Source of the DNA: an uncultured virus (IMG/VR IMGVR_UViG_3300022241_000068)
Taxonomy: Duplodnaviria > Heunggongvirae > Uroviricota > Caudoviricetes
Length of the DNA stretch: 60,489 nucleotides
IMG/VR virus record: IMGVR_UViG_3300022241_000068
Reading direction: 5' to 3' (one strand)
How positions within the stretch are numbered: position 1 is the first letter of the stretch; every line of letters starts with the position of its first letter. The notes under the pieces were generated by a model. It was not told where the DNA came from. It saw only the letters and a list, made by a program, of their open reading frames with translations, and ran no database searches. This document shows, piece by piece, positions 1,561 to 50,700 of this stretch. The translations under genes were made by a program, and so were the position numbers.

Positions 1561-1734
1561 ATGGAAAAACATAAATTCATTAGAATAGCAAAAGCAGGTA
1601 TATTAAACTGTAAATATAAGTATAATAATTCAGAGCATACTCATTACTTTTTTACTTTAAAAAGTCTTGAAAAATTCTTAATAAGTAAAGTTACGGCGGA
1701 ATTCCTAATAATTGATCATGGCAAAGATAACTAA
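1561..1734 (+). CDS. 57-aa hypothetical protein, left array (not in ORF track)
   Basis: Hand translation MEKHKFIRIAKAG...HYFFTLKSLEKFL...GKDN. Confidence 0.65.
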   Translation: MEKHKFIRIAKAGILNCKYKYNNSEHTHYFFTLKSLEKFLISKVTAEFLIIDHGKDN

Positions 1735-15113: not shown

Positions 15114-15115
15114 GA

Positions 15116-15483: not shown

Positions 15484-15502
15484 ATATTTGTATTTAAATT
15501 AA

Positions 15503-15513: not shown

Positions 15514-15585
15514 ATGATAAACATCATTATAAAACGTAATTATCATGAGTTTACATAAATAATTATTCACAGTATATAGCTAAAA

Positions 15586-15969: not shown

Positions 15970-15970
15970 T

Positions 15971-16273
15971 ATGGAAAAAGCTCTCGTAAGTGGCATCATC
16001 TACACTGTAAGAAATGATGATAATAGTAATCAAGTACTATTTTTTGATGAGAATGAATATGTAAGAATTCTCTACAAAAAAGAGGGGGAAGAACCTAGTG
16101 AGGTATTAGAGTTCTTTACTCATCCAGATGTTGAATTAGATTTTAAATATGATGAAGAAGACATTCTTTTCTCTAAAAAAAGAGAAGAATCCATTATTCA
16201 AATGATGAAATCTGAAGACAACAACACCAAATTATTGGCAACAAAATTGATTCAAGTAAAAGAACATAATTAA
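15971..16273 (+). CDS. Hypothetical protein with C-terminal SxD helix motif
   Basis: Ends IIQMMKSEDNNTKLLATKLIQ. Confidence 0.8.
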   Translation: MEKALVSGIIYTVRNDDNSNQVLFFDENEYVRILYKKEGEEPSEVLEFFTHPDVELDFKYDEEDILFSKKREESIIQMMKSEDNNTKLLATKLIQVKEHN

Positions 16274-16274
16274 G

Positions 16275-19541: not shown

Positions 19542-19909
19542 TAATTATTTTTATATTTGTAAAATCCATAGATATACCAAAAATATATTGTATATTTGAT
19601 AACCCTAGTGGTGAAACAACGACTATAACAGTTTATCAAGAATATTCCACAAAAGATCTCTTCACTTTGAGTAAAATGACAGATTTTGAAAACAATATTG
19701 TTTGCACTTCTGTTGTTAAAGGAGCATTTGATAAAATTAAGTTAGATATAGAAATTGGTGATAATATAAAATTAATGAATATATATCAAATGCTATCATC
19801 CAATGATAAAAATGCTTCAGAATTAGGAATAATTACTTTAATAGAAGAACTTTTAAATTACCAGTTATGCAAAGAGAAGAAGAACAACAGCCAATTATTG
19901 ATGAAATAA
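19538..19909 (+). CDS. Hypothetical protein with C-terminal SxD motif
   Basis: IYQMLSSNDKNASELGIITL. Confidence 0.75.
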   Translation: MIIIFIFVKSIDIPKIYCIFDNPSGETTTITVYQEYSTKDLFTLSKMTDFENNIVCTSVVKGAFDKIKLDIEIGDNIKLMNIYQMLSSNDKNASELGIITLIEELLNYQLCKEKKNNSQLLMK

Positions 19910-30864: not shown

Positions 30865-31468
30865 AAAAATATGGAAAAAATTTAATGTAAGTACAGTTAT
30901 GATTTTACCCTTATTTTGGAATGCTACTGAACATATAATAGCAAAAAAATCTAAAGTTAGATTCCCATTTGTACAGTTGTGCATAGAGTATGGATTAATA
31001 AATACATATCTATATAAAAATGGTAAGTATGATAATAAATTATACTTAGAATTTGACAAAGAAGAGTTTACCAAGGATAAAAAATTAACTACAAGCCCAT
31101 ATACATCTATATTAGAATTGCTTATTAATTATAATATGTATGCTGGACTAGAGATGACTAATGATACAGTGCTGATAGCTTTACATATTCCTGTAGAATT
31201 TAGAGAAGATATTAAAATTATCGAAGATTCTAAATACTCTAAATTATCAGATGAATATAAATCAGAGCTTCATATAAAACAAAACTCTGTACCATTAACA
31301 AAAAATGAATTTGCAATGTATGTTGCAAGCAAGAACTTAGGATATGCTATTTCAATGAAATCTGATAATATCAAGAAAGAAATTGAAAAAGAGCTCAAAA
31401 TGACTATAACGAGGGATGATGAATATTACGAAAGATTCAATAAAGTTAAAGAAAATTACGTAAATTGA
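30857..31468 (+). CDS. Hypothetical protein
   Basis: 203-aa ORF with ILPL, LINTYL, KYSKLSDEYK. Confidence 0.8.
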   Translation: MIRKIWKKFNVSTVMILPLFWNATEHIIAKKSKVRFPFVQLCIEYGLINTYLYKNGKYDNKLYLEFDKEEFTKDKKLTTSPYTSILELLINYNMYAGLEMTNDTVLIALHIPVEFREDIKIIEDSKYSKLSDEYKSELHIKQNSVPLTKNEFAMYVASKNLGYAISMKSDNIKKEIEKELKMTITRDDEYYERFNKVKENYVN

Positions 31469-31469
31469 G

Positions 31470-31883
31470 ATGAAAAAAAAGAAAAAAACAAGTAAGAACA
31501 ATGTGTTACCAATTATATTAAATAAGAAAGGTAATAAAAATGATGCAGGTAAACCTCCTGTAACCCAGTTACTGAGGCAATTCCCTTCTGCTATTAAATA
31601 TGTATCTAAATGTTCTGAATATGGACATAAAGAATATGGGGAAAAAGAGAATGAAGAGTTATGGGACAATTGGAGATATGTAGAAGAAGCTAAGTTTAGA
31701 TATAAACAAGCTGCGGGAAGACATTTTCTAGAAGAAAATGGTAAGTTTGATGAAGGAAGTGGTTTATATCATATAGCACATTGCATATGGAATTTATTAG
31801 CAGAATTGCAATTTCAATTAGAAGAAGATTTTCAAAAAAATATAAAAAATGAAGGACATAAATTTGATATTAAAGAACGTTAA
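31470..31883 (+). CDS. DUF5664-type dATP/dGTP diphosphohydrolase domain protein
   Basis: GNKNDAGK, YGHKEYG, NWR, AAGRH, DEGSGLYHIAHCIWNLL. Confidence 0.85.
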   Translation: MKKKKKTSKNNVLPIILNKKGNKNDAGKPPVTQLLRQFPSAIKYVSKCSEYGHKEYGEKENEELWDNWRYVEEAKFRYKQAAGRHFLEENGKFDEGSGLYHIAHCIWNLLAELQFQLEEDFQKNIKNEGHKFDIKER

Positions 31884-32115
31884 GTTTGCTTCTTTCAGAA
31901 GTAACGCAGATGGTAGTATTAGAATATCATTTGATACACAAGAACTTTCAGTAGAAGATACTAGGAAATTAATCTCCTTATATAAGGAAAAAGAATGTAG
32001 TGTAAATGTGGGCAGTGGTGAAATATTTGATACAGGTGTAGAATTTTTGGCAAGCATTGAAAATCTTGCACCTGATCAGTTAAAAGCTTTTTTAAAACAT
32101 GCTGAAGAAGATTAA
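31849..32115 (+). CDS. Hypothetical protein
   Basis: 88-aa ORF, ADGSIRISFDTQEL. Confidence 0.75.
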   Translation: MKDINLILKNVKFASFRSNADGSIRISFDTQELSVEDTRKLISLYKEKECSVNVGSGEIFDTGVEFLASIENLAPDQLKAFLKHAEED

Positions 32116-32364
32116 GTGAAAAGTTACACAAAAACTTTTTTAGAATATATGGAGAAAATTCATAATATTCTTCCTCATGAACTATTATGTGAAGTATGTC
32201 AGCAAAAAGCTGTTGACATACATCACATTTTAGGAAAAGGTAAATATCCAGAATTGACAAATGATGTTAATAATTTAATAGCACTATGTAGAAAATGTCA
32301 TGATAAATATGGACAGAAAAAGCAATATGTGGAATATTTACAATCTATAATTAAAAAAAGATGA
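32116..32364 (+). CDS. HNH endonuclease (Zn-binding)
   Basis: CEVC, DIHH, NNLIALCRKCH; exact start uncertain. Confidence 0.85.
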   Translation: MKSYTKTFLEYMEKIHNILPHELLCEVCQQKAVDIHHILGKGKYPELTNDVNNLIALCRKCHDKYGQKKQYVEYLQSIIKKR

Positions 32365-32540
32365 AAACGATAGTTTCAAGGATACGTGTACATAAAACTT
32401 ATTCGCATATTAATAGCTCTCATAAGTATTTCATTAATATTAATGTTAATGAACCTATTATAGAAGACGAAGGTTTTTTTGATTTATCAATAGTTGAATC
32501 AATAGTGCAAAGTTTAATAACTAAATATCATAATATTTAA
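32361..32540 (+). CDS. Array unit 1 (59 aa)
   Basis: MKTIVSRIR...LSIVESIV. Confidence 0.7.
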   Translation: MKTIVSRIRVHKTYSHINSSHKYFININVNEPIIEDEGFFDLSIVESIVQSLITKYHNI

Positions 32541-32546
32541 TAAATA

Positions 32547-32717
32547 ATGAAGAAATATTTGATAACTTATAAAAGACGTTATATTAAGTCTTTTGATCTT
32601 TATAATTACGAGCTTTATCATGATAAATTATACTCTAGTATTGTAATATTATCTATAGAACGTGAAATTTTAGCACTTGAAAGACAGTTTTATGCGATTA
32701 AAAATAATAAATCATAG
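32547..32717 (+). CDS. Array unit 2 (56 aa)
   Basis: MKKYLITYKRR...ILALERQF. Confidence 0.7.
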   Translation: MKKYLITYKRRYIKSFDLYNYELYHDKLYSSIVILSIEREILALERQFYAIKNNKS

Positions 32718-32844
32718 ACATTACTATTATAATCATACATATATGTATGAACTTCGTAGTTGGACAGGAAATAAATTAAATAGTTCATTCTCTATCATAT
32801 GGATAGAAGAATATATTAAATATCTAAAGGAAAATGAAATTTAA
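32692..32844 (+). CDS. Array unit 3 (50 aa)
   Basis: MRLKIINHR...IIWIEEYI. Confidence 0.75.
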   Translation: MRLKIINHRHYYYNHTYMYELRSWTGNKLNSSFSIIWIEEYIKYLKENEI

Positions 32845-32977
32845 AATATGTAATTTTAAAATAGCAGATATAATTTATGGAAAGTATAGATATAAATTGC
32901 ATAAGGATCATGAAGTTGGTCATAATTTACGCCAAATTGAAGGTGTAATCATTATACTAACTAACTGTTTTAAATAA
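32834..32977 (+). CDS. Array unit 4 (47 aa)
   Basis: MKFKICNFK...LRQIEGVI. Confidence 0.75.
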   Translation: MKFKICNFKIADIIYGKYRYKLHKDHEVGHNLRQIEGVIIILTNCFK

Positions 32978-32987
32978 AAGTTCAATA

Positions 32988-33143
32988 ATGAAATTAAAAA
33001 TTACTAATGAAAAAATAGATAAATGTTATTTATATACTGTACATTTACCAAATGGAGAAACGTATAGATATGATATATTATTTTTAATAGGTTGTTGGTT
33101 TAAATTTTACGCTGATGAAATACACAATAAAATGGGTTGCTAA
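32988..33143 (+). CDS. Array unit 5 (51 aa)
   Basis: MKLKITNEK...LFLIGCWF (E replaced by G). Confidence 0.65.
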   Translation: MKLKITNEKIDKCYLYTVHLPNGETYRYDILFLIGCWFKFYADEIHNKMGC

Positions 33144-33249
33144 AGGGAATTATTATGTATTACTAAAAGGTTCCAGAACAATTTTTGGTGCAGGAAACTT
33201 GTTTTATTTAGAACATCTTTTTATACTATTTCATGAGAATCCTTCTTAA
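33115..33249 (+). CDS. Array unit 6 (44 aa)
   Basis: MKYTIKWVAK...LFYLEHLF. Confidence 0.7.
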   Translation: MKYTIKWVAKGNYYVLLKGSRTIFGAGNLFYLEHLFILFHENPS

Positions 33250-33394
33250 AAATCATAGATTAAGTAAATCAATTTATACATATAAAATTGAAAATGTAGA
33301 TTATAGTAGATTTATTATGTCTATACATTTATGCAATATAGAAAGTCAAATAAAAATTCATGAAAACAAAAATTCTAATAAAAAGAACAATTAA
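33233..33394 (+). CDS. Array unit 7 (53 aa)
   Basis: MRILLKNHR...LCNIESQI. Confidence 0.75.
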   Translation: MRILLKNHRLSKSIYTYKIENVDYSRFIMSIHLCNIESQIKIHENKNSNKKNN

Positions 33395-33494
33395 TTCTCG
33401 TTACTATATAACTAATAGTAAAAATTTTATGACATATGGTTATTATATTAATCTGAAATCAGTAGAACACGTTATAGAAAATTATTTTATATGA
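33360..33494 (+). CDS. Array unit 8 (44 aa)
   Basis: MKTKILIKR...LKSVEHVI. Confidence 0.7.
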   Translation: MKTKILIKRTINSRYYITNSKNFMTYGYYINLKSVEHVIENYFI

Positions 33495-33628
33495 AAATAA
33501 TAATAAAATGTGATCTTACTAGAAGAATTAAAATCTACCAGCGTTTACGTAAATGCTATCATATTAGAAGTTTTTCTTCTTTGCTGCAAATAGAAAAATT
33601 TATTAAAAATGAAAATTATCATACATAA
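33491..33628 (+). CDS. Array unit 9 (45 aa)
   Basis: MKIIIKCD...LLQIEKFI. Confidence 0.7.
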   Translation: MKIIIKCDLTRRIKIYQRLRKCYHIRSFSSLLQIEKFIKNENYHT

Positions 33629-33743
33629 AACAATGAAAGGTTGTAAAGAAACTATTAGAATTAATTATATCTATACTGTTAATAGTATAACACTAGGTAA
33701 TTACATATTTCTTTCAACTTTAGAAAAAAGACTAAAAGAATAA
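33609..33743 (+). CDS. Array unit 10 (44 aa)
   Basis: MKIIIHKT...LSTLEKRL. Confidence 0.7.
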   Translation: MKIIIHKTMKGCKETIRINYIYTVNSITLGNYIFLSTLEKRLKE

Positions 33744-33762
33744 ATAGGATAAGAAATATTAA

Positions 33763-33933
33763 ATGAAAATTATAATAAGAAATAAGAAGGATTCTTCTTA
33801 TACCGTGAGTAAATATAAATACAAATATTATATGTATAATAACGATAAAACTTGGGTTTATTGGCTATATCTTATAGAAGGTTATATTAAACATATGAAA
33901 AAATATGAAAAGATTAAAATTAAAAATAATTAA
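33763..33933 (+). CDS. Array unit 11 (56 aa)
   Basis: MKIIIRNKK...LYLIEGYI. Confidence 0.75.
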   Translation: MKIIIRNKKDSSYTVSKYKYKYYMYNNDKTWVYWLYLIEGYIKHMKKYEKIKIKNN

Positions 33934-34072
33934 AAGTAGTGAAAACGTATTAAAATGGAATATATTTTATATTATACCTCTTTCACACAAACATTATCTG
34001 AGAAAAAAATATCGTGTAAGTGGATATTTCATACAAGATATAGAAAAATATATTAAAAATAGCTTCAATTAA
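33905..34072 (+). CDS. Array unit 12 (55 aa)
   Basis: MKRLKLKIIK...IQDIEKYI. Confidence 0.7.
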   Translation: MKRLKLKIIKSSENVLKWNIFYIIPLSHKHYLRKKYRVSGYFIQDIEKYIKNSFN

Positions 34073-34217
34073 AATAGTATCTATAAAGGGCGGAGATTGT
34101 AAATATAGAATAGAAGTATATAATAAAAAAGTTTTAAAATATGCAATTAGATTTACTACATTTGAACGTGTACATTCCTATGTAACTTATTTTTATGAAA
34201 ATTATACTAAAAAATGA
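34059..34217 (+). pseudogene. Array unit 13 (52 codons, no ATG; ATA start or decayed)
   Basis: IASIKIVSIK...FTTFERVH; in-frame TAG at 34041 and no ATG after it. Confidence 0.5.
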
Positions 34218-34372
34218 TAACAATTAAATTAAACAGACAATTGCAGTCAAAATATGTAGTTATTTGTACATATCCTGATAACACTGTTCAAAATTTTCCA
34301 ATGAGAGAGTTGCTGCAAGCAGAATGGTTTATAGAAGAAAGATCTAAAATTTATGGACGACTTTTTAGTTGA
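34214..34372 (+). CDS. Array unit 14 (52 aa)
   Basis: MITIKLNR...LLQAEWFI. Confidence 0.7.
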   Translation: MITIKLNRQLQSKYVVICTYPDNTVQNFPMRELLQAEWFIEERSKIYGRLFS

Positions 34373-34376
34373 ATTT

Positions 34377-34526
34377 ATGAAAAAGTATATTATAACAAAT
34401 CATAGAATACATAGTTTAGAGATAATTATATATGACCTATATGTATATATAGATACCACAGTTACTAATTATGAGGGTTGGAGCAGTTTAAAGCATTTAG
34501 AAGATATTATAATCTCGTATAAATAA
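34377..34526 (+). CDS. Array unit 15 (49 aa)
   Basis: MKKYIITNHR...LKHLEDII. Confidence 0.75.
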   Translation: MKKYIITNHRIHSLEIIIYDLYVYIDTTVTNYEGWSSLKHLEDIIISYK

Positions 34527-34527
34527 A

Positions 34528-34740
34528 ATGAAACCTAAAAAATACATATTGAAAAATAAACGTACTTCAAATATTGAATTTATACATTTTAATACATATA
34601 AACTTAGAATAAAATATCAATATTATGTAGCAAATCTTTTTAACAGTTACATTAGTGGGATACAAGAGGGTATGAGACATTATGACATCAACCATCCTGA
34701 AAAAACAATATTATCTGAAATAAATGAAATATATATTTAA
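34528..34740 (+). CDS. Array unit 16 (70 aa)
   Basis: MKPKKYILKNKR...ISGIQEGM (variant). Confidence 0.7.
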   Translation: MKPKKYILKNKRTSNIEFIHFNTYKLRIKYQYYVANLFNSYISGIQEGMRHYDINHPEKTILSEINEIYI

Positions 34741-34840
34741 AAATCACCGAAACCCTCATTATAAGTATGTGTATTCTATAGTAGGTACAACTTCATTGTA
34801 TATACATATACATAATATAGAATATATAATTAAATGTTAA
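34724..34840 (+). CDS. Array unit 17 (38 aa)
   Basis: MKYIFKNHR...IHNIEYII. Confidence 0.75.
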   Translation: MKYIFKNHRNPHYKYVYSIVGTTSLYIHIHNIEYIIKC

Positions 34841-34888
34841 ACATTATATAAGTGGTCATATCAAGACTTAAAAAAAGAAAATTATAGT

Positions 34889-35017
34889 ATGAAATATAAA
34901 ATTCAATATTATAAAAGATATAAGCTATATTCTTTATATGTTTTATATAAAGTTGCAGATAACAGAGTAACTGCAAACATGTTCCATACACTGAAAGAAA
35001 TTGAACGTCATATATGA
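34889..35017 (+). CDS. Array unit 18 (42 aa)
   Basis: MKYKIQYYKR...LKEIERHI. Confidence 0.75.
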   Translation: MKYKIQYYKRYKLYSLYVLYKVADNRVTANMFHTLKEIERHI

Positions 35018-35163
35018 AATTTAAAATTACAAAATACAAGAATCATCGAAATGATGATAGACACATATTATCTTACAATAATATTGATTACATTGAACTA
35101 TTTATGTTACATAACATAGAAGATCATATAATTGAAATTTCTAAAAATGAAATATATACTTAA
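35014..35163 (+). CDS. Array unit 19 (49 aa)
   Basis: MKFKITKYKNHR...LHNIEDHI. Confidence 0.75.
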   Translation: MKFKITKYKNHRNDDRHILSYNNIDYIELFMLHNIEDHIIEISKNEIYT

Positions 35164-35320
35164 AAATTGTAAAAATGCTGATGGAGATTGGATGTACTTT
35201 ATAACAAATTCCTATTTAGATAATGATGAATATATGGAATTTTTAAACTATTACTATCTTGAAAATCTTGAGTACTGTCTTTTAAAATATTATTATGAAA
35301 ATAAAACTAGTTATAAATAA
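35147..35320 (+). CDS. Array unit 20 (57 aa)
   Basis: MKYILKNCK...LENLEYCL. Confidence 0.75.
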   Translation: MKYILKNCKNADGDWMYFITNSYLDNDEYMEFLNYYYLENLEYCLLKYYYENKTSYK

Positions 35321-35468
35321 TAAACCTTTTCCAGCTCCGCTTTCTTATTTTAATGCATTTTCACTGAAAGTAAAAGGGAAAATTACAGTGTTAAATTGGG
35401 AATTCAATATAAAAGATATTGAAAATCAAATACAAAGAGATACTTATGCGATATACTATAAAAAATAG
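35295..35468 (+). CDS. Array unit 21 (57 aa)
   Basis: MKIKLVINNK...IKDIENQI. Confidence 0.75.
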   Translation: MKIKLVINNKPFPAPLSYFNAFSLKVKGKITVLNWEFNIKDIENQIQRDTYAIYYKK

Positions 35469-35589
35469 AAAAGAACTTCGTTATCATAATTCTGATACGC
35501 ATTTTTACATATATCATGTAACAAATTTTTATTTAAATTCATATGAATATATTTCACTCAGTACTTTAGAAAATTTATTTATAAGATGA
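35446..35589 (+). CDS. Array unit 22 (47 aa)
   Basis: MRYTIKNRK...LSTLENLF. Confidence 0.75.
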   Translation: MRYTIKNRKELRYHNSDTHFYIYHVTNFYLNSYEYISLSTLENLFIR

Positions 35590-35729
35590 ATTATAAAAAG
35601 ATATTTATTATAAAAAGACTAACATATCATGATGGGTTTGACACATTAACATTATTGTTTAAATCAGATGGTGCATATAGATATATAAATTGGAAATTTA
35701 CTATTAATGAAATTGAAAAACTTATATAA
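35586..35729 (+). CDS. Array unit 23 (47 aa)
   Basis: MNYKKIFIIKR...INEIEKLI. Confidence 0.7.
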   Translation: MNYKKIFIIKRLTYHDGFDTLTLLFKSDGAYRYINWKFTINEIEKLI

Positions 35730-35730
35730 T

Positions 35731-35907
35731 ATGTTTAAAATAAAAATGATTAATACTAGAGCAGAAGGATTTCGATGCTCTATTCATTATAATCATGAAG
35801 AACTCCTTATTCTTGGTAGCGAGTATACTAATAAAGTAACACACGGCACTAGTCTTATCTTTGATATTATAGAATATAGATTAGTTAATAGATATAGAAT
35901 TAATTAA
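35731..35907 (+). CDS. Array unit 24 (58 aa)
   Basis: MFKIKMINTR...FDIIEYRL. Confidence 0.7.
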   Translation: MFKIKMINTRAEGFRCSIHYNHEELLILGSEYTNKVTHGTSLIFDIIEYRLVNRYRIN

Positions 35908-35922
35908 TATAAAATAATTAAA

Positions 35923-36057
35923 ATGTATATCATACGTAAAAATACACTAACTAAATTTGGTTATACACTAATTAAAAAATCAAATAATTTCCATAAAGCA
36001 TGGTCAGGTATATCTTTAAGATATGCAGAATCTATTATATCACATAATAAATTATGA
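35923..36057 (+). CDS. Array unit 25 (44 aa)
   Basis: MYIIRKNT...LRYAESII. Confidence 0.7.
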   Translation: MYIIRKNTLTKFGYTLIKKSNNFHKAWSGISLRYAESIISHNKL

Positions 36058-36061
36058 GAAA

Positions 36062-36211
36062 ATGAAAAATAAAATATTTACTCTAAGAAAACCATTGTTT
36101 AATCATCATTTTATAGTTCTTATTTTATACAATCCTACAAGAGTTCTTCAAGGAGATATTGAAACATTAGAAAAACTTATAGTACATTATTATCATGAAC
36201 GTAATCCATAA
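36062..36211 (+). CDS. Array unit 26 (49 aa)
   Basis: MKNKIFTLRK...IETLEKLI. Confidence 0.7.
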   Translation: MKNKIFTLRKPLFNHHFIVLILYNPTRVLQGDIETLEKLIVHYYHERNP

Positions 36212-36413
36212 AAGTTTATCATCAGATATATATGAATTAAAGTCTACTAGAAATAATATTACAATGCCATACAAAACTATTATACCTACTCTTGAAAAAG
36301 TTAAAGTTTATGAAATATATATTAATAATGGGAAAGATTTACTTGAAATAGGGTACGAAATATCCTATGTGGAATATCATTTAAAATTACTTCTTAAATC
36401 AAATAAAATATGA
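36195..36413 (+). CDS. Array unit 27 (72 aa)
   Basis: MNVIHK...MPYKTII...ISYVEYHL. Confidence 0.7.
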   Translation: MNVIHKSLSSDIYELKSTRNNITMPYKTIIPTLEKVKVYEIYINNGKDLLEIGYEISYVEYHLKLLLKSNKI

Positions 36414-36577
36414 AATGCATTTTTAAAAATGTAAAAGGGAAAGGTTACTATAGTTATTTTATTACTAATTTATATACTATTTTATATCCCAGAGACGTAC
36501 TTGTTGATCCATCTAGTGGAACTTATATGCAGATATCTTCTTTAGAAGAATTAGTAGATTTTCACAAACAGATTTAA
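36410..36577 (+). CDS. Array unit 28 (55 aa)
   Basis: MKCIFKNVK...ISSLEELV. Confidence 0.75.
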   Translation: MKCIFKNVKGKGYYSYFITNLYTILYPRDVLVDPSSGTYMQISSLEELVDFHKQI

Positions 36578-36592
36578 AGAATGGTTTAAAGA

Positions 36593-36751
36593 ATGGAAAA
36601 TAATAAAATCAAAATAATCAAGCATTCTTCTGGATATACCCTCTTTCCAAAACCTTTAAGATTTGATATATATGAAAATTTTTGTGTAATGTTAACAGGA
36701 ACTTCTGATCTTAACATCAAAGATGTAGAAAGATTTATAAAAACTATGTAA
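36593..36751 (+). CDS. Array unit 29 (52 aa)
   Basis: MENNKIKIIKH...IKDVERFI. Confidence 0.7.
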   Translation: MENNKIKIIKHSSGYTLFPKPLRFDIYENFCVMLTGTSDLNIKDVERFIKTM

Positions 36752-36763
36752 AATAATTATAAT

Positions 36764-37075
36764 ATGAAAATAGAAAAATACATTGAAATTTTAGAAAAAT
36801 TAAAATCTAAAATTATACCTATGACAGGGTATAAAGAATTAAATTACAACTCTAAATGTTTAGCAATAGAGAAGTTTAATTATCTGGTTACAGATAAAAC
36901 ATATGATAAAATATGTAAAAAATTACATAAAGAATTCGTAAAAGAATTAGAACTAGATGAGCAAAGAAGTTCTGAAGAATATGTAACTATTCAGAAACTA
37001 GTATCTCAAAAGATAAAAGTTGGCACTCAAGAAGAAGTTAGTAAAAACTTAGAAATAAATAAAATTATAACTTAA
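36764..37075 (+). CDS. Hypothetical protein, last gene of the + strand run
   Basis: 103 aa; its stop overlaps the convergent gene's stop in a shared TTAA at 37072-37075. Confidence 0.75.
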   Translation: MKIEKYIEILEKLKSKIIPMTGYKELNYNSKCLAIEKFNYLVTDKTYDKICKKLHKEFVKELELDEQRSSEEYVTIQKLVSQKIKVGTQEEVSKNLEINKIIT

Positions 37076-40000
37076 TTTTCTTCTTTGTTAGATTTTTTAT
37101 CAGGAAGGGCTATCATTGATTTAGATTCAGGATAATCAGTAGTACTTTTTGCTATAGGGAGTGCTGCAAGTTTTCCAACCATTTTAGCAACAAAACCTAA
37201 AGGAAAATTTGCAACACTATACCATTCTGTATCATTTATTAACTGGTTCTTAATATAAGTATTCTTTCCTGATATACTTGTTGCAATTGAAGTCTTTTCT
37301 TTACCTAAAGCTTCATTTATATAACCTCCATACAAGTTTTCAAACCAACCTCTTACAAGAGGTATAGATTTAATGAAGTCCTTTTGAGTTTTTGAATATC
37401 CAGCATACATTCCAGATTTTACTTCAGTAGAACCAAACATTACTTCTGAAGCAATTACAAAAGGTAATGTGAATATATTGGCAAAATTCTTAAGTTCTTC
37501 TGCACCAGAAATAGGTTCATTTATATACCTAAGAATATCAGATGCTGATACTCTAGATTCTTGTTCCATCAATGCTCTTGTAGATAAATATACAAGATAT
37601 TTTGTCCAAGGATCTTCATCATCGTCATCTCCTAGTATCATAGCATTAAGTACATAAGCTAACATAAATGTCATACTTGTAGCTGCAGCCATAAGGCTTA
37701 CTCTATAAAAACCTTCTTTAACTTCAGGTTCTGCATCTGTAAGCTTATCTCTTAATTCTACCCATTTCATAGGATTTAACAATTGGATAACATTTCCATC
37801 AAAAGGATCTAAAAATGCCTTCCAATAACCTATTTCTTTCTCTTGAGTACCATAATTAAATTGCTTACTTTTAAACCCTCTTTCTAACATTTGAAATAAC
37901 CATCCAGTGTTAATAGTACTAAACTGGAGCATTACATCATTATATGCTTGACCTTTATCAACATCCAAAGGTACACTATCTAACCTTGAAGCTATGATTT
38001 TTACTCTATTTTTGTAAAAAGCTATAGCTTCAGGTGTGACATAACTCTTATATGCCACTTTGCCGTTATTGCCATCCATGCCGTCATATAAAGTAGGTGC
38101 ACTATCAAATTCATCAACATTACGGTTAGGATTCTGCTTAACAAACAGATCCCAGGATTGCTTAGTATAAAAATTACCGTCTATAAACCTAATATTATGA
38201 GCAGTAGCAATTAATGCTTCATATTTCAAGGCAACGTCAGCAAGTCTCCATCCTCCCCAATCTACCATATTTTTATTAAATCTTAGAATCTTATTTCTAT
38301 TAGTATCTTGAAAATTACGTTCAATACTGTCCACAAGTCCTATGTCTTGAGCAATTATTGATATTTTAGACTGTTTAATAGGAGAATTTAGATCCTTGAT
38401 TACATCAGCAGAATGCTTTATAAAGAATTCCTTTTTAGCAAAGAGATTAGATTCTTTAGTATTATATTTACCTAATATAGATTCTATAGTGTTCTCAATC
38501 TGACCAGATATGTAACCTGTAATCATTGAAGGGATATTTCCTAATAATCTTTGATTTATTGTATACTTTTTAAGTGTAGAAGCAAATTTATGAAAAGCGC
38601 TTAAATGACCACCTTTATTAAACATTTCACCTTGAATAATAACCTTCTTCATATGCTCAAGCTTATGCAAAAGATAATCTTCAACCTCATCCTTACTCTT
38701 AAAGATATCAAAGATCTTATATAACCCCCCTTTTGGAACATGTGAGTCCTCTCTTTCTGTATGTTTAGCGGCTTCTATTATACCATTTAACTCTGGAAGA
38801 ACTTCCATGAATTCTCCATAATGATTAGACATTTCTGTGAACATAGATATACTTTTCACTAAATCCAAAGAAATGTTATCAGCTTCTTCTAATTTAGACA
38901 AAAATCTAATCCTTGGTCTATCTATAATTTCACTTTTTGTAGCAACTTCTATCCTATCAGCATATAACAGATCATCCTCTTTTACAGTGAAAGTATCTGT
39001 AAATTTATCATATAAACCAGCACCTTTATTCTTTTGATATAAGATGTCCATATAAGACCTAGAAATCTGCGGTAAACGATTTACTAATTCATATGAGTAA
39101 TTAAGTGGAAGTCTTTCTTGCGCCTTCTGATGAGCTTCCTTTAAAGCCTCAAGTACACTCAGAGCTTCAGGATTAGAAGTCTTAAGATTATTATACTGAG
39201 AACTTCTATAATCATTAGTTGGTATAGCAGCTCCAGTAATAGGATTTATGTTAGTAGAACCATCTGAGGGTACAGATAACTCCCCTGTATAATAAGTAAC
39301 TGTATAAGTTACATCATCTTCAATAATCTCTTTTACATGTACATTCTTGGCTAACCAGTGTTTAAACTGAGTTTTGCTCATGGAAGCTTGTCTTTTTGCT
39401 ATAATATTAGTAGCATCAGGATGAGCCATTGTATTTTTACTATACCAATCTGACCAAAGCTTATTATAAGTCTTTTCTAGCTCTTTAATATGCTTACCTA
39501 GAGGAGTTGTAGGATTATTATATCCAAATAACTCATCAATTTTCTTCTGTTCTGAAGGTATTTTTACATTGAATCCAGCTTTCCTAGATATATCTTCTAT
39601 CTTTTTGATTATATTTAAGGACCCTTCTTCTCTAGCTTTATTCCATTTTGTTATATTAAATGGATTTAACCAGTAATGAGTAGGTTTACCATTCTCATCA
39701 AGCTCTTGGAATTCTCTAGCATCATACTTTTTACCAGCAATTTTCTGTAAAAGATCTATAGATGATGAATTAGTTTTAGAATGGATAACATTTAGTACAT
39801 CCATTAACTTTTTATTATAAATACCCAATAAGTCTTCTTTAGCATTTTGTGCAGCGCCCCACTTGAAATTTAATATACCTATATTATATAGTTTAATGGT
39901 ATCCTGACTAATCCTTCTCTCCAAATCAGGATTTATTCCTACATATTGTTTAAATAAGTTTTTAACCTGGTTAGAAGCTTCATTATTCATGAAATCCTGG

Positions 40001-41755: not shown

Positions 41756-44700
41756 TTATGCTTCTCTCGTAGGCCCACATGCTGTTTCATCTTCATCAAG
41801 TGCAGGAGGACCTTTAATTTCTAAATCATCAGGGAATTCTTGTGTTTTTTCAACAGGAGAAAGCTGCTCATTTAACTTTCTTAAGATTTCATTTTTAATT
41901 TTTATAATACCAGGAGAAGATAAAGTAAGTATTTCTTTACCAGCATCTTTAGCAGATATATCTATAATTCTATTGTCTGTTAATACATAAACTTTCAAAT
42001 CTCCATGTTCAACTTTTCTTAAAGGATTATATCCATGTTTAACTTGAAACATATTTATAAGTTTCTCATCTACTACCTCTACACCTTTTTCATCCCTTAT
42101 AGTACCATTAGAGTATAATCCTAACTTTTGACCATTTACAATAATTTCTTTTTCAAGAGTTTCAACATTATCAGGTAAAATTTCTCTAATTTCATATTCT
42201 CTAGGTAATATAACATTGTCTGGAATTATGTTTTTAAGTTTTTCAAATAAACTTTTAATTTCTTCTATTGAATATCCAGCTAATGAACTTCCAAGTTTAG
42301 TTACTAAAAATTTCTTATTTGGATTAGCTCTAGCAAATAATATCATATTTTGTAACTCTTTACCAATTTCTGATAAACTAGATGATTTTTCAACATCCCA
42401 ATACTTTTTAGTTATTACTGCGTAAGATTGACCTTGCAACCCTTTACTTTGTCCTTGTATTGCTCCAAATTTCTGTTTAGCTAGTAAAGCAGCACCTGCG
42501 CCATGAGTAGGTTTTCCTCCTTTTGAACTACCTTCATTACTACCAAATACAAATATTTCATTTGGTTTAAGAAATGTTATATTATCAGGGGTATATTCTC
42601 TGATTGTATTTACATCTTCTTCTAATTTAGGAACTTCATTTTCTGAAATTTCAATTTCTTCAGCTTTAATCTTATCATCTTGTTTGTATGTATTATTAAC
42701 AGCTTTGGCAACACTATGTTCTGATTTAGTCTTTTCAGAATTGAGTTTATGATATTTCATCTTAAAATCTGGGTAGAAACTTTGTTCATCAGCTTTAAGA
42801 TTAAAGTTCTTAAATGCTTTAGGATTACCATTTAATCTTTGTATTTCATATACTCCAGCAGGATTCTTCTTATACAATACTGGTAAAGTAGCATTTTCAT
42901 AATATACTGTAGAATGTAAGTATTCAGGTAATGAATCACCTTCATTACTATATATGTCTAAGAGATTTTCGTTTATCGTAAAACTAATAGGTATTACACT
43001 CTTGCTTACTTCACCATTAAATTCATTAGTAAAACTTTCACTATATTCTTCTAAAGCTTCTATATGATTTTGTATATCTACGTTTCTAGTATAGAAAGGA
43101 TTTGTATATAAGATTCTTTCAGAAAGTTCTTTTTCTGACATGCTGTTCATTATATTTTTCAAATATTTAACAGGATTCTTAAATACATCTCTTACTATAC
43201 TACCTTCTTCTGTAGAAGTATAAAAACTTACAGGTAACCACTGACTAAAAGAATCAATTGTAAATCTAAAACTAGAAGTAATTAATGAATATAAACCAAG
43301 ATCTTTAGCTAAAGAAGATATTTCTTCATTAGGATCTTTCATCATCTTTTCCCATAAACTAGTTAAGTCTTCACCTTCTTCTCTACCAGGAGAAACAGCT
43401 CTACGTATTAATACTTCTTTTGTTACTTGCTCATACTTTAAAGCATTTAGAAAAGGTAAATATTCTTCATATAATTCTTTGAAATCAGATCTCTTCTTTA
43501 GATCAGCAAATCTTTTAGAGACATCTCTTATAAAGTCTTTACCTAATACTATAGAAGGACTCATTTGGAATATCATATTATATATATCCAAATCTAACAT
43601 TTTCCTATCTGATTTTTTAAACTCATCTAGTTCTAAGAACTCTGCTAAATTTGATCTTATTTGTTCAAACTCTGGAGATAGGAAACTGAAATGTTCTTTC
43701 AAATTATTAGCCTGATCCATAGCTAACTGTATATACTTATCATTGAGTTTAAGTACAGATGCATTTTCTTTTGAAAATTCATAATTAGCTGTCTCAGGAT
43801 TGAATATAATATTTGGAACAATTAGATCTAAACCTGAAATTACAGGATCCTCTTTTTCAAAGTACTTTTTAAGTAAAGAACGTATCTTATCAATTTTATT
43901 TAAGTTATCATACAGTGTAGGTCCAAATGCTGCATCAGTATCAAACTTAGTAGCAATCATTGCAGAAGTTAACTCGTCAGATATTTTAAAAAGCTCTTTA
44001 ATTTTAACTAAAGCTACTATATCTGTAGTATTAGAATTATATTGAGTTAAACCTTTTTCAAAAACACTTCTTCCAGGATTTTTATCAAATTCTTGTTTGT
44101 AAAACTCTGTAAGAGGGAGATTTCTTTCTTTGGCAAAACTCTCTATTAACTTAGGAATAGTGGTAGTATAATCTAAGTTAGTATTTATATAAATAGTTAA
44201 ATCTTTTACTATCTTCTGATTTAAGATTAACATTATATCTCCAAAAGGTATTCCTAACCTAAGAGCTGCCAATACCATAGAAACATTATTCCTGTCTATA
44301 TTAAGTTTATCCATCAAAGGATTCTTAATATGTTCAGTAGATGCAAATAATATACTAGATAGAGATTCAGAAATAAATTTATTATTTCTATTTCTCATAT
44401 TACTTAGACTAGAATATGTATGTTGTAAGAAAGTAAAAGGTTTACTTAATTTTAATCCTTCAATATTCTGTACTACTGCATGATGCTTATTATGAGAAGC
44501 AGCAATTCCAATTATCTCTCCACCCACAATAGCTTTGTTAGCTGCATATATTTGGTATATAGGATCAGATATATCCATAGGAACACTAGTATCTTCTAGA
44601 ACTACTCCTTTATCTTCAAATGCTTTTATTTGATCTCTTAACATATCAGCATTACCACCTTTATGAAATTCTTCAGCAAAGTTTCTTGTCTGAGCAATCT

Positions 44701-47700
44701 TCTCATATATAGACATTCTAAGATTATGTCTAGCCATAGGAGTCTCCATTCCAGGAGGAACCATTTCTATATTACTTATAGTAATATTATCTTTAATTCT
44801 TCTAAAACGTTCTGGCTCTCTTAAGAATTCTATAGCTTCTGCTTCTACTTCACTATTAGGTATACCTCTGTTTAAAACTTTATTGAATAAAGCTTTTGCA
44901 GAACTATTATCATATTCTACAGTAAGAATTTCACCTGTATTTTCATTAAATAATTTCTTATCAGCAAAAAAACTATTTAATTCATCAACTACATAACTGA
45001 AATCTCCTTTAGTTAATTCAAAAGCTTTGAATAATACATATAGTTTATCAATATCAAAGTCTAGCCCAGTAATTGTAGTAGCTTCTTTAGGTAATATAAT
45101 TAAAGAATCTGAATAACTTGGTATTAGATATTTTATTTTAATAGGGTATATTGAATAATCCCCTTCAGTAGGAATTCTATAACCAAAAGCTTTTCGTAAT
45201 TCATCTGTAGCTTCTTTACCTAATGCTTGTTCTATTCTTGTAAAATCTAAAAGACCTCTATCATCAGCTAATAAAGCTAAAGCATAATTATAAGCTGGAA
45301 CAGCAGCATCAATATAATCAATTACTGTTTCACCTTTTTCATTTGTTTTATAATGTATTTCAAGATTATCTTGGTAACTTTCTAAATCTGTAAATCCAAC
45401 AGAAGAAGCATTTACAAAAGGAGCACCAGGAACTTTGTTATTTAAAGCTTTCTTAGTCTTAGAGTTGATTAGTTTAAGATTATCATCTATAGTCAAAGGA
45501 AAATTTAAAGGAATATTCAAATCTCCATCTTGGTGCTTGGATAAACTTTCTATTACAGACATAGGTTTACCTTGCTCACTAGCTTGAGCTAATAATGTAT
45601 TTCTTAAACTATCTGTATCTTTTAATGCCTCATTTAAACTAACTCTATTTTCATCTATATCTCTAGTAAAAGTTTCATCTAATACAGATCTAACTTGTTC
45701 TGGAGTCATTTTACCATAACCTTCTACCTCTACTTCTTCTTCAAGATTAGCTGGCATGATTACTTTAAACTGAGATCCTTCTTCTATTTTACCTTGAAAG
45801 TGTTTTTCACTAGGAACAATGTTTTGTCTACCATACCCTTCCATAGAAGTTTCCACTACAGATGCTAATATAGTATCTATGTCCATATTATCTATTGATT
45901 CTCTTTTGAGAACTTTAGAATTATCTCTATCAACTTTATTAACACTTTGAAAACTTATTCCATCAATACCGTGTTCATGAAATAAATAAAGAATTTTAGC
46001 TAAGAAAGGTCTTCTATATTTTGAAAAATCAGTTTTGTCAGAAGGTTTTTCAACTTTAAAATCTTTAGTTAACCATGCCATAGCTGGAGTAAGAGTATAC
46101 TCTGAGTTCTTCTCTTGGAAAGGTCTTAATAATTCTCCAGACTCTTCTTGGTTAAAATAGTAAGGTTTTTGAACAGGGAAAACAAATTCTGCAGATTCAC
46201 CATTCTTAATTCTTTCAGCAATTTCTATTTCACGATCAGAAATTTCATCAAATCCTCTCATAACATCTACTGTAAAATCAATAGAGTTTATGGTTTGAGC
46301 ATCTGTAATATTATGACCTTTATTATAGTCTCCAGCTAATTCAGGAAAGTCTTCTTTGAGAGTATCTAATTCATTACTTGGAATTAATATATCATCTACA
46401 GTTATCCTTCTCTTTTTTCTAGGAGTTCCATCTTTATATGTAAAGAGCGCATGTTGCTTAGGTGAATGAGCTTCTTTAAACCTCTTAAGAAAGTCTACTA
46501 ATAAACTATTTTTATAATCAAAAGGTGCATCATCAGACTTATATGTACCATAAAAAGCAGGATCTCCAGCTAATAAAGGTATTAACTGAGTATTATAATA
46601 ATACTGATTAAAGAATTGAGTCTTTATATCACCTTCTAAGTCATCTTTAAAGCTAGAACTACTATCATCTATTATATCATCAGTTTTAACAAGTTTTGAA
46701 CCTTCTTTAACTAATACTCCATCCTTTACTAATTTTTCAGTATATGCTTCAAACTTTTTATTTAAAACACTAGATATAAAACCTTCTAATCTTTCAGTGA
46801 GTTCTGGTCCTAATTCTACTCCGCCATTTGCTTTATACAATTCTATAATAGTATCCTTTTTAGAATTTAAAAAAGGTAATAGTATAAAATGTTTACCGTT
46901 TATGTTAAAGTTTCTGTAATTGGTTTTGTTATTTTCAAGATATATAATCCTATTTAATTCAGCATGCGCAGTTCTAACTAATTTATTTACTACGTCATCC
47001 AAGGATACTGTTGGAGCATTCATATACCCAGAAGATGTAGCATCAGAAAACGGAGGTAAAGCAATTACTATCTCCTTACCATTACTATTATACATTCTTT
47101 CTAATGCATAATTTAACTGCTGAGTAATTAGGTCATAATTAAAATACTTGTTATAAGTAATTCCATTATATGTACCTTTTATACCTATACCATTATCATA
47201 ATGAGGTTCAAATATCTCTATAGATTTGCTCAATAAAGCATCATATATAGGTAAGTCTTTATGTAAGATCTTATTCTTAATTGTAGCTAAAGCAGATTTA
47301 GGACTTTCTTTAAACTTGTTAAAGAGAGTTGTCAAATGATTATTCATCTGATGAATATATTCAGCTTCACCTTGAACAGTTGTAATATTCATTACATATG
47401 ATTGCTGATCATGTTTAGCTAATAAATCAGATACTTCTTTTATCTGTTGCTTTGTAAGTTTGCTTTCAATGACACTGAAAGGATTTTTACCTTCTTTAAT
47501 TGCATTAAATACTGGTAGAGCATTAATGCTCAAGCTCTTGTTAGAGAATTCATTACTTTCAAGCTCTACAGCAATTTCTTGATCAATGTTATAACCTAAG
47601 AAAGTATATATACGTTCTATGTCTACAGCATTAAGAAGATTATTATTAGTAATACTATTCTCTAAGATCTTATAAATTTCTAAAAATTCTAATGAATCAA

Positions 47701-50700
47701 GTTCTTTATTTAAGAACATTATTTCAGCATGTCTCTTGAACATTTTCCATAAACCTTTCTTAGAAGAATTATGTACACGTATTCCTCTTCTACTTCTCTC
47801 TGTATTTATAAATACAATATTTCTTTGAGAACCAGTTATTAAGTATAAATTTTTAAACCATTTACTCGCTGAAAGTTTATATACATATTCAGGATCATAT
47901 TTCTTACTATTCTTATCTAATTTTTCTACATTAATATCTTCTCCTGATTGTAGAATCTTTTTACCTACTAATTCATTCTTAATTTTCTCAACTAATGTAT
48001 CTGCATAATCCTTTGTCTTAGCTAAGTCTATTAACTTTAACATGGTTTGTTCAGGAGATGATCCTGAAAGTTTATTCAATAATCTATTAAATAGTACATC
48101 AAAGTTATGATATATCTTAGCTCCTGTTTTAGGATCTATTTTATCAACATAATGACCTAATTCTCTTTCTCTTACAGGAATTAAAGACATTAATTCTCTA
48201 ATTTTACCTTTAACATTTGTCTTAGGATTCACATTAGTATCTCTAATTAATGTAGTTTTCTCATCAAATTCATTTGCATCTTGAGTAATTTGAACTCCAG
48301 CACTATATAAGTTATTCATATATTGTGCTATATACAACTGAAGTTTAAGAAGATCTTCTTTATTTTCTAATATATTCTTTAATTCACCGTAGTTTTCTAA
48401 TTGTTCAGGACTGTTATGTTTCTGGAACCAAAGATCAATATAAGTAGGTAATTCATTAAAAAACTCTTTATTAAACTGAGATTTATTACCAGATTCTATA
48501 ATAGCATTGTATGTATAGTATTGAGCTATATTAGTTTTTTTACCATCTTTATTAATAGTATTTGATTTAAAAGTTCTAACTGCCAGATGTACTAAGTTCT
48601 GTGCTATAAATTTAGCATGTTCACGTATCTGTTTTATATTTGAAACTTTGAACTTTCCTTGATGTAATAATCTAGCAAAGTTTTCAGAATAGTTTTTATT
48701 GAAAGCATTAGTTCTCCCCCCAAATATACTTCTACCAAATATATTTCTATCTAATTGATAAAATAAATCTTCTACAGATATCTTAGTAGTAAAGTAAGGT
48801 TTTAATTGTTGATAACTATCGTATATAAAATTATATAATGAATCTAAAAATTTAGCAATCTTAGGATATTTCTTTTTAAAATTCTCAGAAACAAATCCAT
48901 CAGTAGCTTTATAAGTCTCAAATAATTCTGCTAACTTTTCTTCTAATCTAATTAAAGGATTTTGTTTTTTGTAATATTCTTCTTCTGATTTTAAACGTAT
49001 AGCACTTTGATCTCTATTATTATCAATAGTTATTTCATTCCAAGTATTACCATGCTCATCAGTAACCTGTTTTACATTATCTTTACCATAAGTTTTATTA
49101 AGAATATTACTTACTGTATTTTCATAAAAATTATAAATAGGTTTTAATGCACCAAATCCTTCCTTATCAATTCTTTCAAGTTCTTGTTTAAGTTGGTTTA
49201 TTTCAACTTTTGAATCTTCTTGTTTAGTTTTAATATATTGATTGTAACTTTTTACAACTAATTCTTCATTAGCTTTTTGCTGATTAAAACTTTGATTACC
49301 TGTTTGATATTGAATTAACCATTCTCCACTTCTCCCATCTAATTCTACTGTTTCTCCTTTATTATCTCTGAATTGAAAATACCTTAAATAGGTAGGTTGT
49401 TTTATTTCAGAAGAATTAGTAATAGTATTGAAATCTTTTTCAAGTTCTTTAATCCTATCTTCTTTTTGTTTCTTAAACTCTTCTAAAGTAGTATGCCCTT
49501 CAACTTTACTAGCTGTATTACCAGTAGGAAACAAAACTTTTTCATATCCTTTTTTAGCACTATCTTGTATGATAGATTTAACAAAGAATGTTACCCAATT
49601 ATTATCTTTGTTTAATAGTTGTAGAAATTGATTAGATTTAATATTTTTTCTTTTTTCTATAATTTCTTCTATTGTATTACCATCTACATTTTGGTATTCT
49701 TCAGAATACTCATTTATTAAATTATCTTTATCTCTACCTTTCTGAAATAAATCAGATTGTACTTCAAGTATTCTACGAGTTTTAGTATTAGTTCCTTTTT
49801 GTATATAACCTTTAACCCCATATTGATTATCATATATAGCATATATATCAGTATCATTTAAATCTGCTCTTTCATGTAAAGAACCGTCACTATCTAAATA
49901 TTTCCAAATATTATTCTCTTTAAACCATTTTCCATTTTCATCATTAAATGAATTTGGGTAATCCTTAGATGTTATATATTCTTCATCACTTCTAAACCAA
50001 CCAATACCTTTATCAGTACTAAATTGAGCATGACCTTTAATAGAAGGAGTAATAGCTCCTTTTCTTACAGTTTTAGTATTAGATTTAATAAAGCTTTTAA
50101 ACCCTTCTATATCTTGTTTAGAACCTAATATATGAATTTGTTCTGGTTCAAATACTACGAATTGAGCTACTCTTGAAGGAGTTATAATACCATCAAATCC
50201 TTTTTCTTGTAATTTTTTTGAAAAAGGAATTAAACGAGAATCTTCTTCTAATAATTCTTTATCGCTAAATCCTAATCTTTTACCTTCATAATATCTTTCA
50301 GACCATTCTTGTTCTTGTGGTGTGAGTTTATATGTAGTTCTTGGATTACTTGGGTTTTTAATATCTAAAATAGCAGTATATAATTCTCCATATCTTAAAG
50401 CTTCTTCTTTAATATTTGTAAAATAAAACCCATCACCTATTTCAAAATGAACTATTTGTTTAGAAGAACCTATATAATTTTTATTAAAACTATTATTTAT
50501 AGGTATAGGACTATTTATTGAAACATTATTTTCAAATAATGTTATTCCATTATCATTTAAAATAAGTCCTATTCCTGCACCTATTATCTTGTTTTTACCT
50601 TCATATATTTGTACTCCTATATGCCAATTATTATTAGATACTTTTTCAGCCTTTAATATTTTAATATTATAAGAATTTACATCTAAAATTTTTCCAAATT

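Follow-up and report, generated by a model that had tools for sequence, protein, structure and literature searches.

What occupies positions 32361 to 36751 of a viral DNA in which this interval lacks annotation and homologues, and what might its products do? The DNA concerned is a stretch of 60,489 nucleotides (nt), referred to here as the window, from an uncultured virus of the class Caudoviricetes (IMG/VR IMGVR_UViG_3300022241_000068), and is part of an 86-kb IMG/VR record estimated to be 70% complete. An earlier note, made from the sequence of the window alone, had proposed that the interval holds an array of 29 very small, highly diverged genes built on one scaffold. Our analysis established that the array is a real orphan family of microprotein genes, about 30 in number, which is old and both diverges and turns over faster than its neighbours.

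Twenty-eight ATG-initiated open reading frames (ORFs) of 38-72 amino acids (aa) each were identified on the + strand between 32361 and 36751, and a 29th open frame (34068-34217) shows the family pattern with no ATG in this strain. The array was therefore counted as 29 units of 38-72 aa in 4391 nt, and the 29 consecutive + strand ORFs of the earlier note became 28 ATG ORFs and one start-less frame. Start-to-start spacing is 118-215 nt with a mean of 151 nt, matching the reported 118-215 bp and mean of about 150. Overlaps make up 19 of the 29 junctions and gaps of 1-48 nt the other ten; ATGA occurs six times (once at the junction with an upstream HNH gene) and ATTAA once, in keeping with the description of most junctions as ATGA or short overlaps. 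In six units an internal ATG fitting the family N-terminus was preferred over the start of the longest ORF.

On the + strand 28 ATG ORFs of at least 38 aa gave a cover of 94%, and on the - strand two gave 6%; 500 dinucleotide shuffles averaged 1.3 such ORFs with 4.3% cover and never exceeded 5 ORFs or 18%. Since the DNA has a composition of about 22% GC and its shuffles fall so far short of this tiling, a chance origin is excluded, and the units are real, tightly packed genes. Because most of the genes overlap, they are probably translationally coupled, as had been proposed. A promoter/terminator scan of the array found promoter-like sites at shuffle level (69 vs 72.6) and no terminator-like site; the available part of the phi14:2 preprint (10.1101/2020.03.07.982082) describes early transcripts without a common upstream motif. 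The long ORFs of the window, including the giant ones, are open under table 11, and an alternative code is not needed.

The array and its units are listed below. Where given, the eight-residue string is the match of the unit to the motif h..hE..h (h, hydrophobic), NHR is a tripeptide shared by some units, and LOO is the leave-one-out hidden Markov model (HMM) score of a unit set against 200 shuffles of the same unit, 0/200 meaning that all shuffles were beaten. Single-nucleotide polymorphisms (SNPs) are those of the strain comparison described further on.

32361..36751, + strand: whole array of 29 micro-genes, identified by ORF cover against shuffles
32361..32540, + strand: unit 1, 59 aa, LSIVESIV, LOO 18/200; variants P0028 and P0029 are stored, P0029 with a different C-terminus
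32547..32717, + strand: unit 2, 56 aa, ILSIEREI, LOO 20/200
32692..32844, + strand: unit 3, 50 aa, internal ATG chosen (TTG at 32677 possible), IIWIEEYI, NHR, LOO 5/200
32834..32977, + strand: unit 4, 47 aa, LRQIEGVI, LOO 3/200, two synonymous SNPs
32988..33143, + strand: unit 5, 51 aa, strict motif absent, LOO 0/200
33115..33249, + strand: unit 6, 44 aa, LFYLEHLF, LOO weak (70/200)
33233..33394, + strand: unit 7, 53 aa, LCNIESQI, NHR, LOO 0/200
33360..33494, + strand: unit 8, 44 aa, LKSVEHVI, LOO 0/200
33491..33628, + strand: unit 9, 45 aa, ATGA junction, LLQIEKFI, LOO 28/200
33609..33743, + strand: unit 10, 44 aa, LSTLEKRL, LOO 0/200
33763..33933, + strand: unit 11, 56 aa, LYLIEGYI, LOO 2/200
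33905..34072, + strand: unit 12, 55 aa, IQDIEKYI, LOO 2/200, two nonsynonymous SNPs
34068..34217, + strand: unit 13, about 49 aa, open frame, start-less here (ATT 34068, ATA 34059), LOO 77/200
34214..34372, + strand: unit 14, 52 aa, ATGA junction, LLQAEWFI, LOO weak (154/200)
34377..34526, + strand: unit 15, 49 aa, longest ORF from 34353, LKHLEDII, NHR, LOO 0/200
34528..34740, + strand: unit 16, 70 aa, LOO 0/200
34724..34840, + strand: unit 17, 38 aa, the shortest, IHNIEYII, NHR, LOO 0/200 with 18.3 bits
34889..35017, + strand: unit 18, 42 aa, after the largest gap (48 nt), LKEIERHI, LOO 1/200
35014..35163, + strand: unit 19, 49 aa, ATGA junction, LHNIEDHI, NHR, LOO 57/200
35147..35320, + strand: unit 20, 57 aa, the sole clearly acidic unit (isoelectric point, pI, 4.6), LENLEYCL, LOO 14/200
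35295..35468, + strand: unit 21, 57 aa, the modelled unit (see below), LOO 0/200
35446..35589, + strand: unit 22, 47 aa, LSTLENLF, LOO 0/200 with 18.4 bits
35586..35729, + strand: unit 23, 47 aa, ATGA junction, INEIEKLI, closest pair with unit 21
35731..35907, + strand: unit 24, 58 aa, longest ORF from 35707, FDIIEYRL, LOO weak (180/200)
35923..36057, + strand: unit 25, 44 aa, LRYAESII, nine clustered SNPs in run X4
36062..36211, + strand: unit 26, 49 aa, longest ORF from 36023, IETLEKLI, LOO 9/200, four nonsynonymous SNPs
36195..36413, + strand: unit 27, 72 aa, the longest, ISYVEYHL, LOO 4/200
36410..36577, + strand: unit 28, 55 aa, ATGA junction, ISSLEELV, LOO 1/200
36593..36751, + strand: unit 29, 52 aa, IKDVERFI, LOO 0/200

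Motif and profile tests were used to determine whether the units form one family. The motif h..hE..h was present in 26 of the 29 units; 1000 shuffles that preserved composition had it in 3.3 units on average and in 9 at most. An N-terminal start of the M-(K/R)-h-h-h type was present in 23 (shuffle mean 2.0, maximum 7). Few positions are conserved, namely the strand M-K-h-h-I-K-N at the N-terminus, a Tyr in the centre and, where a helix begins, h..hE..h with an aligned Glu column that is at least 90% conserved. In the leave-one-out test 10 of the 29 units scored above every one of the 200 shuffles made from them and 18 ranked within the top 5%, and the family HMM, which is self-inclusive, matched 28 of the 29 at E up to 1e-3. 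Pairwise similarity is near noise (mean Z 0.57; Z above 2 in 15% of pairs; best pair, units 21 and 23, Z 7.3), and at the DNA level only the start context and the IE..I codons are repeated. The copies are judged to be old because pairwise similarity is barely above noise and no other DNA repeats remain. Similarity of the units did not decay over distance along the array, and recent duplicates were not seen.

Much of the earlier description of the units is borne out by these counts, including the M-K/R-type start, the five units with NHR (3, 7, 15, 17 and 19, all recovered), the hyper-diverged and barely alignable sequences, and the richness in Tyr, which makes up 10.3% of residues or 2.1 times its share in the larger proteins of the phage. 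Other parts need amendment. The Glu said to be present in 27 of 29 units falls to 26 when the strict motif is counted, its aligned column nevertheless being conserved as stated above; DNA-level repeats do occur at the start context, as claimed, but also in the IE..I codons; and the idea of variants of one scaffold agrees with the shared motif and topology, although the leave-one-out test gives individual support to no more than 18 of the 29 units. Growth by old tandem duplication did not find the support that a decay of similarity with distance would have given.

One further member was found about 30 kb away from the array. It was absent from the training set, is matched by the family HMM at E 1.3e-5 (20.9 bits) and at 2.4e-8 after one iteration, and is the only ORF outside the array at E below 1e-3 among the 642 stop-to-stop ORFs on both strands of the window; the remainder of the IMG/VR record beyond the window contained no further family members. 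It lies in a second block of small genes.

1561..1734, + strand: outlying family member, 57 aa
673..2805, + strand: second small-gene block, 10 genes of 57-89 aa, just after a tRNA gene, containing 1561-1734

The genes of this block resemble those of the array in style (K-h-h-h-K start, Tyr-rich middle, hE..h), and an hhalign comparison of block and array gave E 0.0016 with a probability of 16%, colinear over 42 columns. The genes other than 1561-1734 showed no statistical link to the family, and on these comparisons kinship of the block as a whole with the array is only suggestive. The tRNA gene in front of it, tRNA-Leu with anticodon TAA at 573-659, was the only RNA gene found using ARAGORN and Rfam.

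Runs of 11 studies, on sludge, wastewater, runoff and freshwater, contain the array, which made a comparison of strains possible. Contigs of four runs, including X4, X8, X17 and X18, were compared with positions 31400-38000 (6.6 kb). Run X4 spans the full stretch, and all 25 of its 25 SNPs fall within the 4391-nt array and none within the 2210-nt flanks (P 3.7e-5); in the four runs together there are 35 SNPs, all within the array. The ratio of nonsynonymous to synonymous changes (N:S) over the four runs was 30:5, compared with a neutral expectation of 27.2:6.9 matched for mutation type, and thus shows no purifying selection on the residues; no stop gain or start loss was found among the 35 SNPs where 2.45 were expected (P 0.07). 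Nine SNPs within 35 nt (36009-36043, unit 25) in X4 look like a recombination tract. Three indels were recorded, namely -3 nt at 36278 (unit 27, X4), +6 nt behind 34759 (unit 17, X17) and +1 A in unit 16, and two of the three are in frame. The additional A lies in the A-run 34537-34542 in X4, X17 and X18 and puts the body of unit 16 out of frame with its ATG; this run could be a slippage-prone on/off site. The same three runs carry the SNP 34061 A>G, which gives unit 13 an ATG, and a stored variant, P0033, begins at the Met so created. A Ser in the tail of unit 12 becomes Gly through the same SNP. The X8 contig retains 36408-38000, and upstream of 36263 it has 387 other letters in place of 830.

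Unit 13 is thus start-less in the window and unit 16 frameshifted in X4, X17 and X18, so that gain, loss or inactivation of copies between strains was observed (unit 13, unit 16 and X8), as was the presence of several tandem paralogues of one family (HMM and motif tests), both being features of birth-and-death evolution; recent duplicates with similarity decaying over distance, a third such feature, were not found. The data support the conclusion that the array is accessory and fast evolving, as expected of a host-directed repertoire.

The fold was predicted using AlphaFold2 on unit 21 with the 29 paralogues as the alignment, giving a predicted local distance difference test score (pLDDT) of 76.9. 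The model has strands at residues 4-8, 21-26 and 29-33, followed by a helix at 39-55, and a member of the second block modelled from an independent alignment showed the same strand-strand-strand-helix order at pLDDT 57.8. The strand-strand-helix fold proposed earlier was close, with three strands predicted instead of two. The hydrophobic residues of h..hE..h are spaced i, i+3, i+7, which corresponds to the side of an amphipathic helix that is buried, and pLDDT in the unit 21 model is highest in the helix block; on account of this spacing and score the conserved helix may serve the core of the fold. The conserved residues of the motif most likely hold the predicted fold together rather than form a docking surface, and the constant docking helix of the earlier note is not favoured, the residues in question fitting a buried core. 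The conserved Glu is located 33-60 residues from the N-terminus, within the predicted helix. A homodimer prediction for unit 21 scored 0.01. The units are rich in Tyr, His and Ile, with Tyr and His each enriched 2.1-fold relative to the larger proteins of the phage; the pI is at least 8.8 in 23 of 29 units, six are neutral or acidic, and none of the 29 has a transmembrane-like segment.

Searches for relatives were carried out at the level of sequence, profile and structure. Nothing significant was obtained from Pfam (28 units, unit 13 left out) or PHROGs, and in the same 28 units the Pfam models of YegP/DUF1508, Arm-DNA-bind and AP2 gave no match at E up to 1. A sequence profile search of the PDB returned nothing below E 0.48, Foldseek against the PDB and BFVD nothing at E up to 0.001, and the ESM Atlas no usable match. 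A profile search of 1.84 billion representative proteins produced 10 matches, all of them units of this phage itself or variants differing by 1-2 residues; a word-based search at E up to 10 produced 11 proteins, all orthologous variants. Both searches have low power (a 51-position profile, with members needing about 36 bits), and relatives elsewhere may exist. A viral contig collection yielded two contigs that are 99.99% identical and four distant relatives, scans of metagenome and genome contig collections for sister or related genomes were empty, and the phage GenBank set gave no DNA match. No described phage array of paralogous microproteins was found by literature searches. The earlier note had recognised no described family, and the searches agree: the array is a new protein family in a known setting, that of the short-gene blocks of crAss-like phages and of viral multigene families.

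The genomic context of the array was examined next to these results. Upstream of it, the + strand encodes replication proteins (PolB, SNF2 and DnaB-type helicases, a primase and the uracil-DNA glycosylase UDG) as well as a MoxR-type ATPase with a DUF2201 VWA protein and a dATP/dGTP diphosphohydrolase, followed by an HNH endonuclease; the array is positioned at the end of this replication module. Its immediate neighbours on the + strand are as follows.

32116..32364, + strand: HNH endonuclease gene, 82 aa, matching 24 PHROG families (best phrog_5956, E 1.8e-9), ATGA overlap with unit 1
36764..37075, + strand: 103-aa ORF closing the + strand block, a non-member, with no family-HMM match and no significant Pfam or PHROG match

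Convergent to the array are ORFs of 1557 aa and 5438 aa. The latter (41756-58072, - strand) has a DFDID motif at residue 4338, and the sequence on either side of it resembles, at 21-27% identity, the 'putative RNA polymerase' (the crAss-like virion RNA polymerase) in 110 phage records, most of which are crAss-like; phmmer with its C-terminal 2414 aa found no PDB sequence. Because of the DFDID motif and the RNA polymerase matches, the source virus is, as judged by sequence, a divergent crAss-like phage. The four distant relatives share the 1557-aa gene at 23-35% identity and contain no member of the family. One of them is complete (L004, 131.6 kb) and has, in the slot after the 1557-aa homologue and so in the same position as the array, 18 + strand ATG ORFs of 40-174 aa (14994-19807), including a 174-aa HNH-like protein. 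These small genes have no mutual similarity (blastp at 1e-3) and are non-paralogous.

On balance we lean towards the explanation that the units are accessory, individually dispensable, host-directed binders made from the transcript of the replication module. According to this explanation, the 29 co-oriented genes would be the tail of a replication-module operon in a crAss-like phage and would constitute a lineage-specific multigene family evolving by birth and death of copies. Each protein of about 50 residues would have three beta strands packed on one C-terminal amphipathic helix, with conserved positions that keep the fold and with loops and exposed faces free to vary. Made inside the infected cell, each unit would bind a host macromolecule, possibly a target of defence or takeover, and an arms race would maintain the diversity of the set. 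The arms-race view fits the pattern observed, in which the array mutates, gains or loses starts, suffers frameshifts and swaps segments while the flanks are identical. We infer that the units are expressed and that they bind, as well as what they would bind; an anti-defence, decoy or host-range function is something we would only infer. A narrower proposal, in which some 30 co-expressed variants of one 50-residue beta(3)-alpha scaffold jointly neutralise many host defence or surface-sensing proteins as a repertoire of minimal binders, is possible but rather doubtful.

Several observations weigh against host-directed binders. The site of the array, within the replication module, is not recognised as an early or an anti-defence locus. 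A test of the N:S ratio for an excess of synonymous changes gave P 0.86; the ratio is indistinguishable from neutral and also fits an absence of selection. Eleven of the 29 units (1, 2, 6, 9, 13, 14, 19, 20, 23, 24 and 25) were outside the top 5% in the leave-one-out test. The VIA wide fold search gave a best Z of 4.7 (AcrIF24, N-terminal part), with none reaching 5, which is within background; further rows, all background, were AcrVIA1 (Z 4.2), the methane monooxygenase inhibitory subunit, SRP14 and double-stranded RNA-binding domains, together with the HPI integrase arm-type domain (3jtz, Z 3.4), Plasmodium AP2 (6sy0, Z 3.1) and YegP (3bid, Z 3.1). Contigs of two oligo-dT RNA libraries from one study do overlap much of the array, for which DNA carry-over is a possible source. 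The available part of Yutin et al. 2021 (PMC7886860), which reports that many crAss-like phages have blocks of short genes lacking outside homologues, counts in favour of host-directed binders in suspecting anti-defence functions, but against them in that the attempt to predict anti-CRISPR proteins (Acrs) in such blocks failed.

Alternatively, the units could be small nucleic-acid-binding proteins, with different units for different sites or shapes of host or phage DNA or RNA, an explanation that partly overlaps the preferred one and that we consider unlikely. The beta(3)-alpha fold is a DNA-binding fold known from integrase arm-type, AP2 and MBD domains, which the predicted strand-strand-strand-helix order resembles if taken as a basic three-stranded sheet that exposes Tyr, His, Lys and Arg and has a helix behind it, and the basic pI of 23 units and the enrichment in Tyr and His would suit such a role, as would the arm-type and AP2 domains in the VIA list. 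Their Z values, however, are inside the noise of that list, no Pfam arm-type or AP2 match and no PDB sequence relative was found, and six units are neutral or acidic. It is quite unlikely that the array is a by-product without current selection, that is, the result of a past amplification of a small gene whose copies drift and are still open only for lack of time. The near-neutral N:S ratio, a divergence above that of the flanks, one unit without an ATG here and one frameshifted in sister strains are what drift would produce; yet the copies are old (mean Z 0.57, no DNA repeats beyond those named) and 28 of 29 nevertheless keep an ATG and a frame of at least 38 codons, where shuffles have 1.3, while the helix motif is kept in 26 units and no stop was gained among 35 SNPs.

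The T4 internal proteins IPI-III, small basic polymorphic proteins encoded by a hyperplastic locus, suggest another explanation, in which the units are packaged in the virion and injected, with signals for packaging or processing in the constant segments and the effector in the variable body. The units share with them the small size, basic character, polymorphism and short constant segments, and this phage injects giant virion proteins; but an [LI]xE site is present within the first 20 residues of only 1 of 29 units, unlike the T4-type targeting sequence, the conserved Glu is deep inside the predicted helix, and the locus is neither in nor beside virion genes, being in the replication module and convergent to them, which makes this explanation very unlikely. 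It is highly improbable that the units serve the neighbouring HNH nuclease, which itself lacks a DNA-binding domain, as targeting subunits that can be exchanged for one another. The HNH gene overlaps unit 1 by ATGA, its product is only 82 aa and the small-gene block of L004 also has an HNH gene, but that block is non-paralogous and without any family member, and adjacency alone is weak evidence. Finally, the probability that the ORFs arose by chance from the composition of the DNA, or are the remains of a single long gene that has decayed, is negligible, since nothing beyond the absence of annotation and homologues speaks for it and it is refuted by a cover of 94% against a shuffle maximum of 18% and by the strand asymmetry of 28 to 2; each unit, moreover, has its own Met-Lys-type N-terminus in changing frames, and motif enrichment is strong.

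The array of putative binders can be compared with several known systems. The short-gene blocks in the available part of PMC7886860 are similar in having short genes, a crAss-like genome and no outside homologues found; the array differs in being one paralogous family of 29 members with about 150 nt per gene, a kinship that this part does not describe. Short orphan gene blocks are among the least understood parts of crAss-like genomes, and here one of them proves to be a single family, with about 30 members, a predicted fold and a fast turnover that can be measured. Large DNA viruses have multigene families that evolve by birth and death, such as MGF110/360 of African swine fever virus (ASFV) and the gene 'accordions' of poxviruses. 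Tandem paralogues, differences in content between strains and divergence faster than the flanks are common to these and the array, whereas the members here have about 50 aa instead of hundreds, the virus is a bacteriophage, and neither a recent duplicate nor a DNA-level repeat beyond those named is present. Anti-CRISPR and other anti-defence loci likewise comprise small orphan proteins in fast-evolving short-gene arrays; unlike the unrelated proteins of Acr loci, however, the 29 units are paralogues, no Aca-like regulator was seen, and the two Acr folds at the head of the VIA list (AcrIF24 and AcrVIA1) are within background. Domains of the YegP/DUF1508, integrase arm-type and AP2 types resemble the model in having about 50 residues and three strands followed by a helix, a likeness of predicted topology accompanied by no Pfam match at E up to 1 and by Z values (3.1-3.4) at background.

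The 29 natural variants of one tiny scaffold constitute a tractable set for testing these explanations. If the units are host-directed binders, the phage would keep a broad counter-defence repertoire in 4.4 kb and the scaffold would be a very small natural one for binding; were the minimal-binder repertoire true as well, the family would be a new anti-defence protein family and a case of natural scaffold-library evolution in a virus. Neutrality of the units would make the array a rare instance of ORFs that persist for long in AT-rich DNA under no selection.

Two further observations concern other parts of the window. The first concerns 36795-37811: in both RNA-library runs, contigs match from 37812 on, are unlike the sequence before it and leave 36925-37808 uncovered, and parts of the array are likewise without cover by RNA-library contigs; the 103-aa ORF and the C-terminal end of the 1557-aa protein may be different in the strain of these libraries. 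At 13610-15042 on the - strand, against the direction of the + strand replication block, genes for an Amidase_2 protein (207 aa) and a Peptidase_M43-like protein (270 aa) were found, and these may form a lysis cassette.

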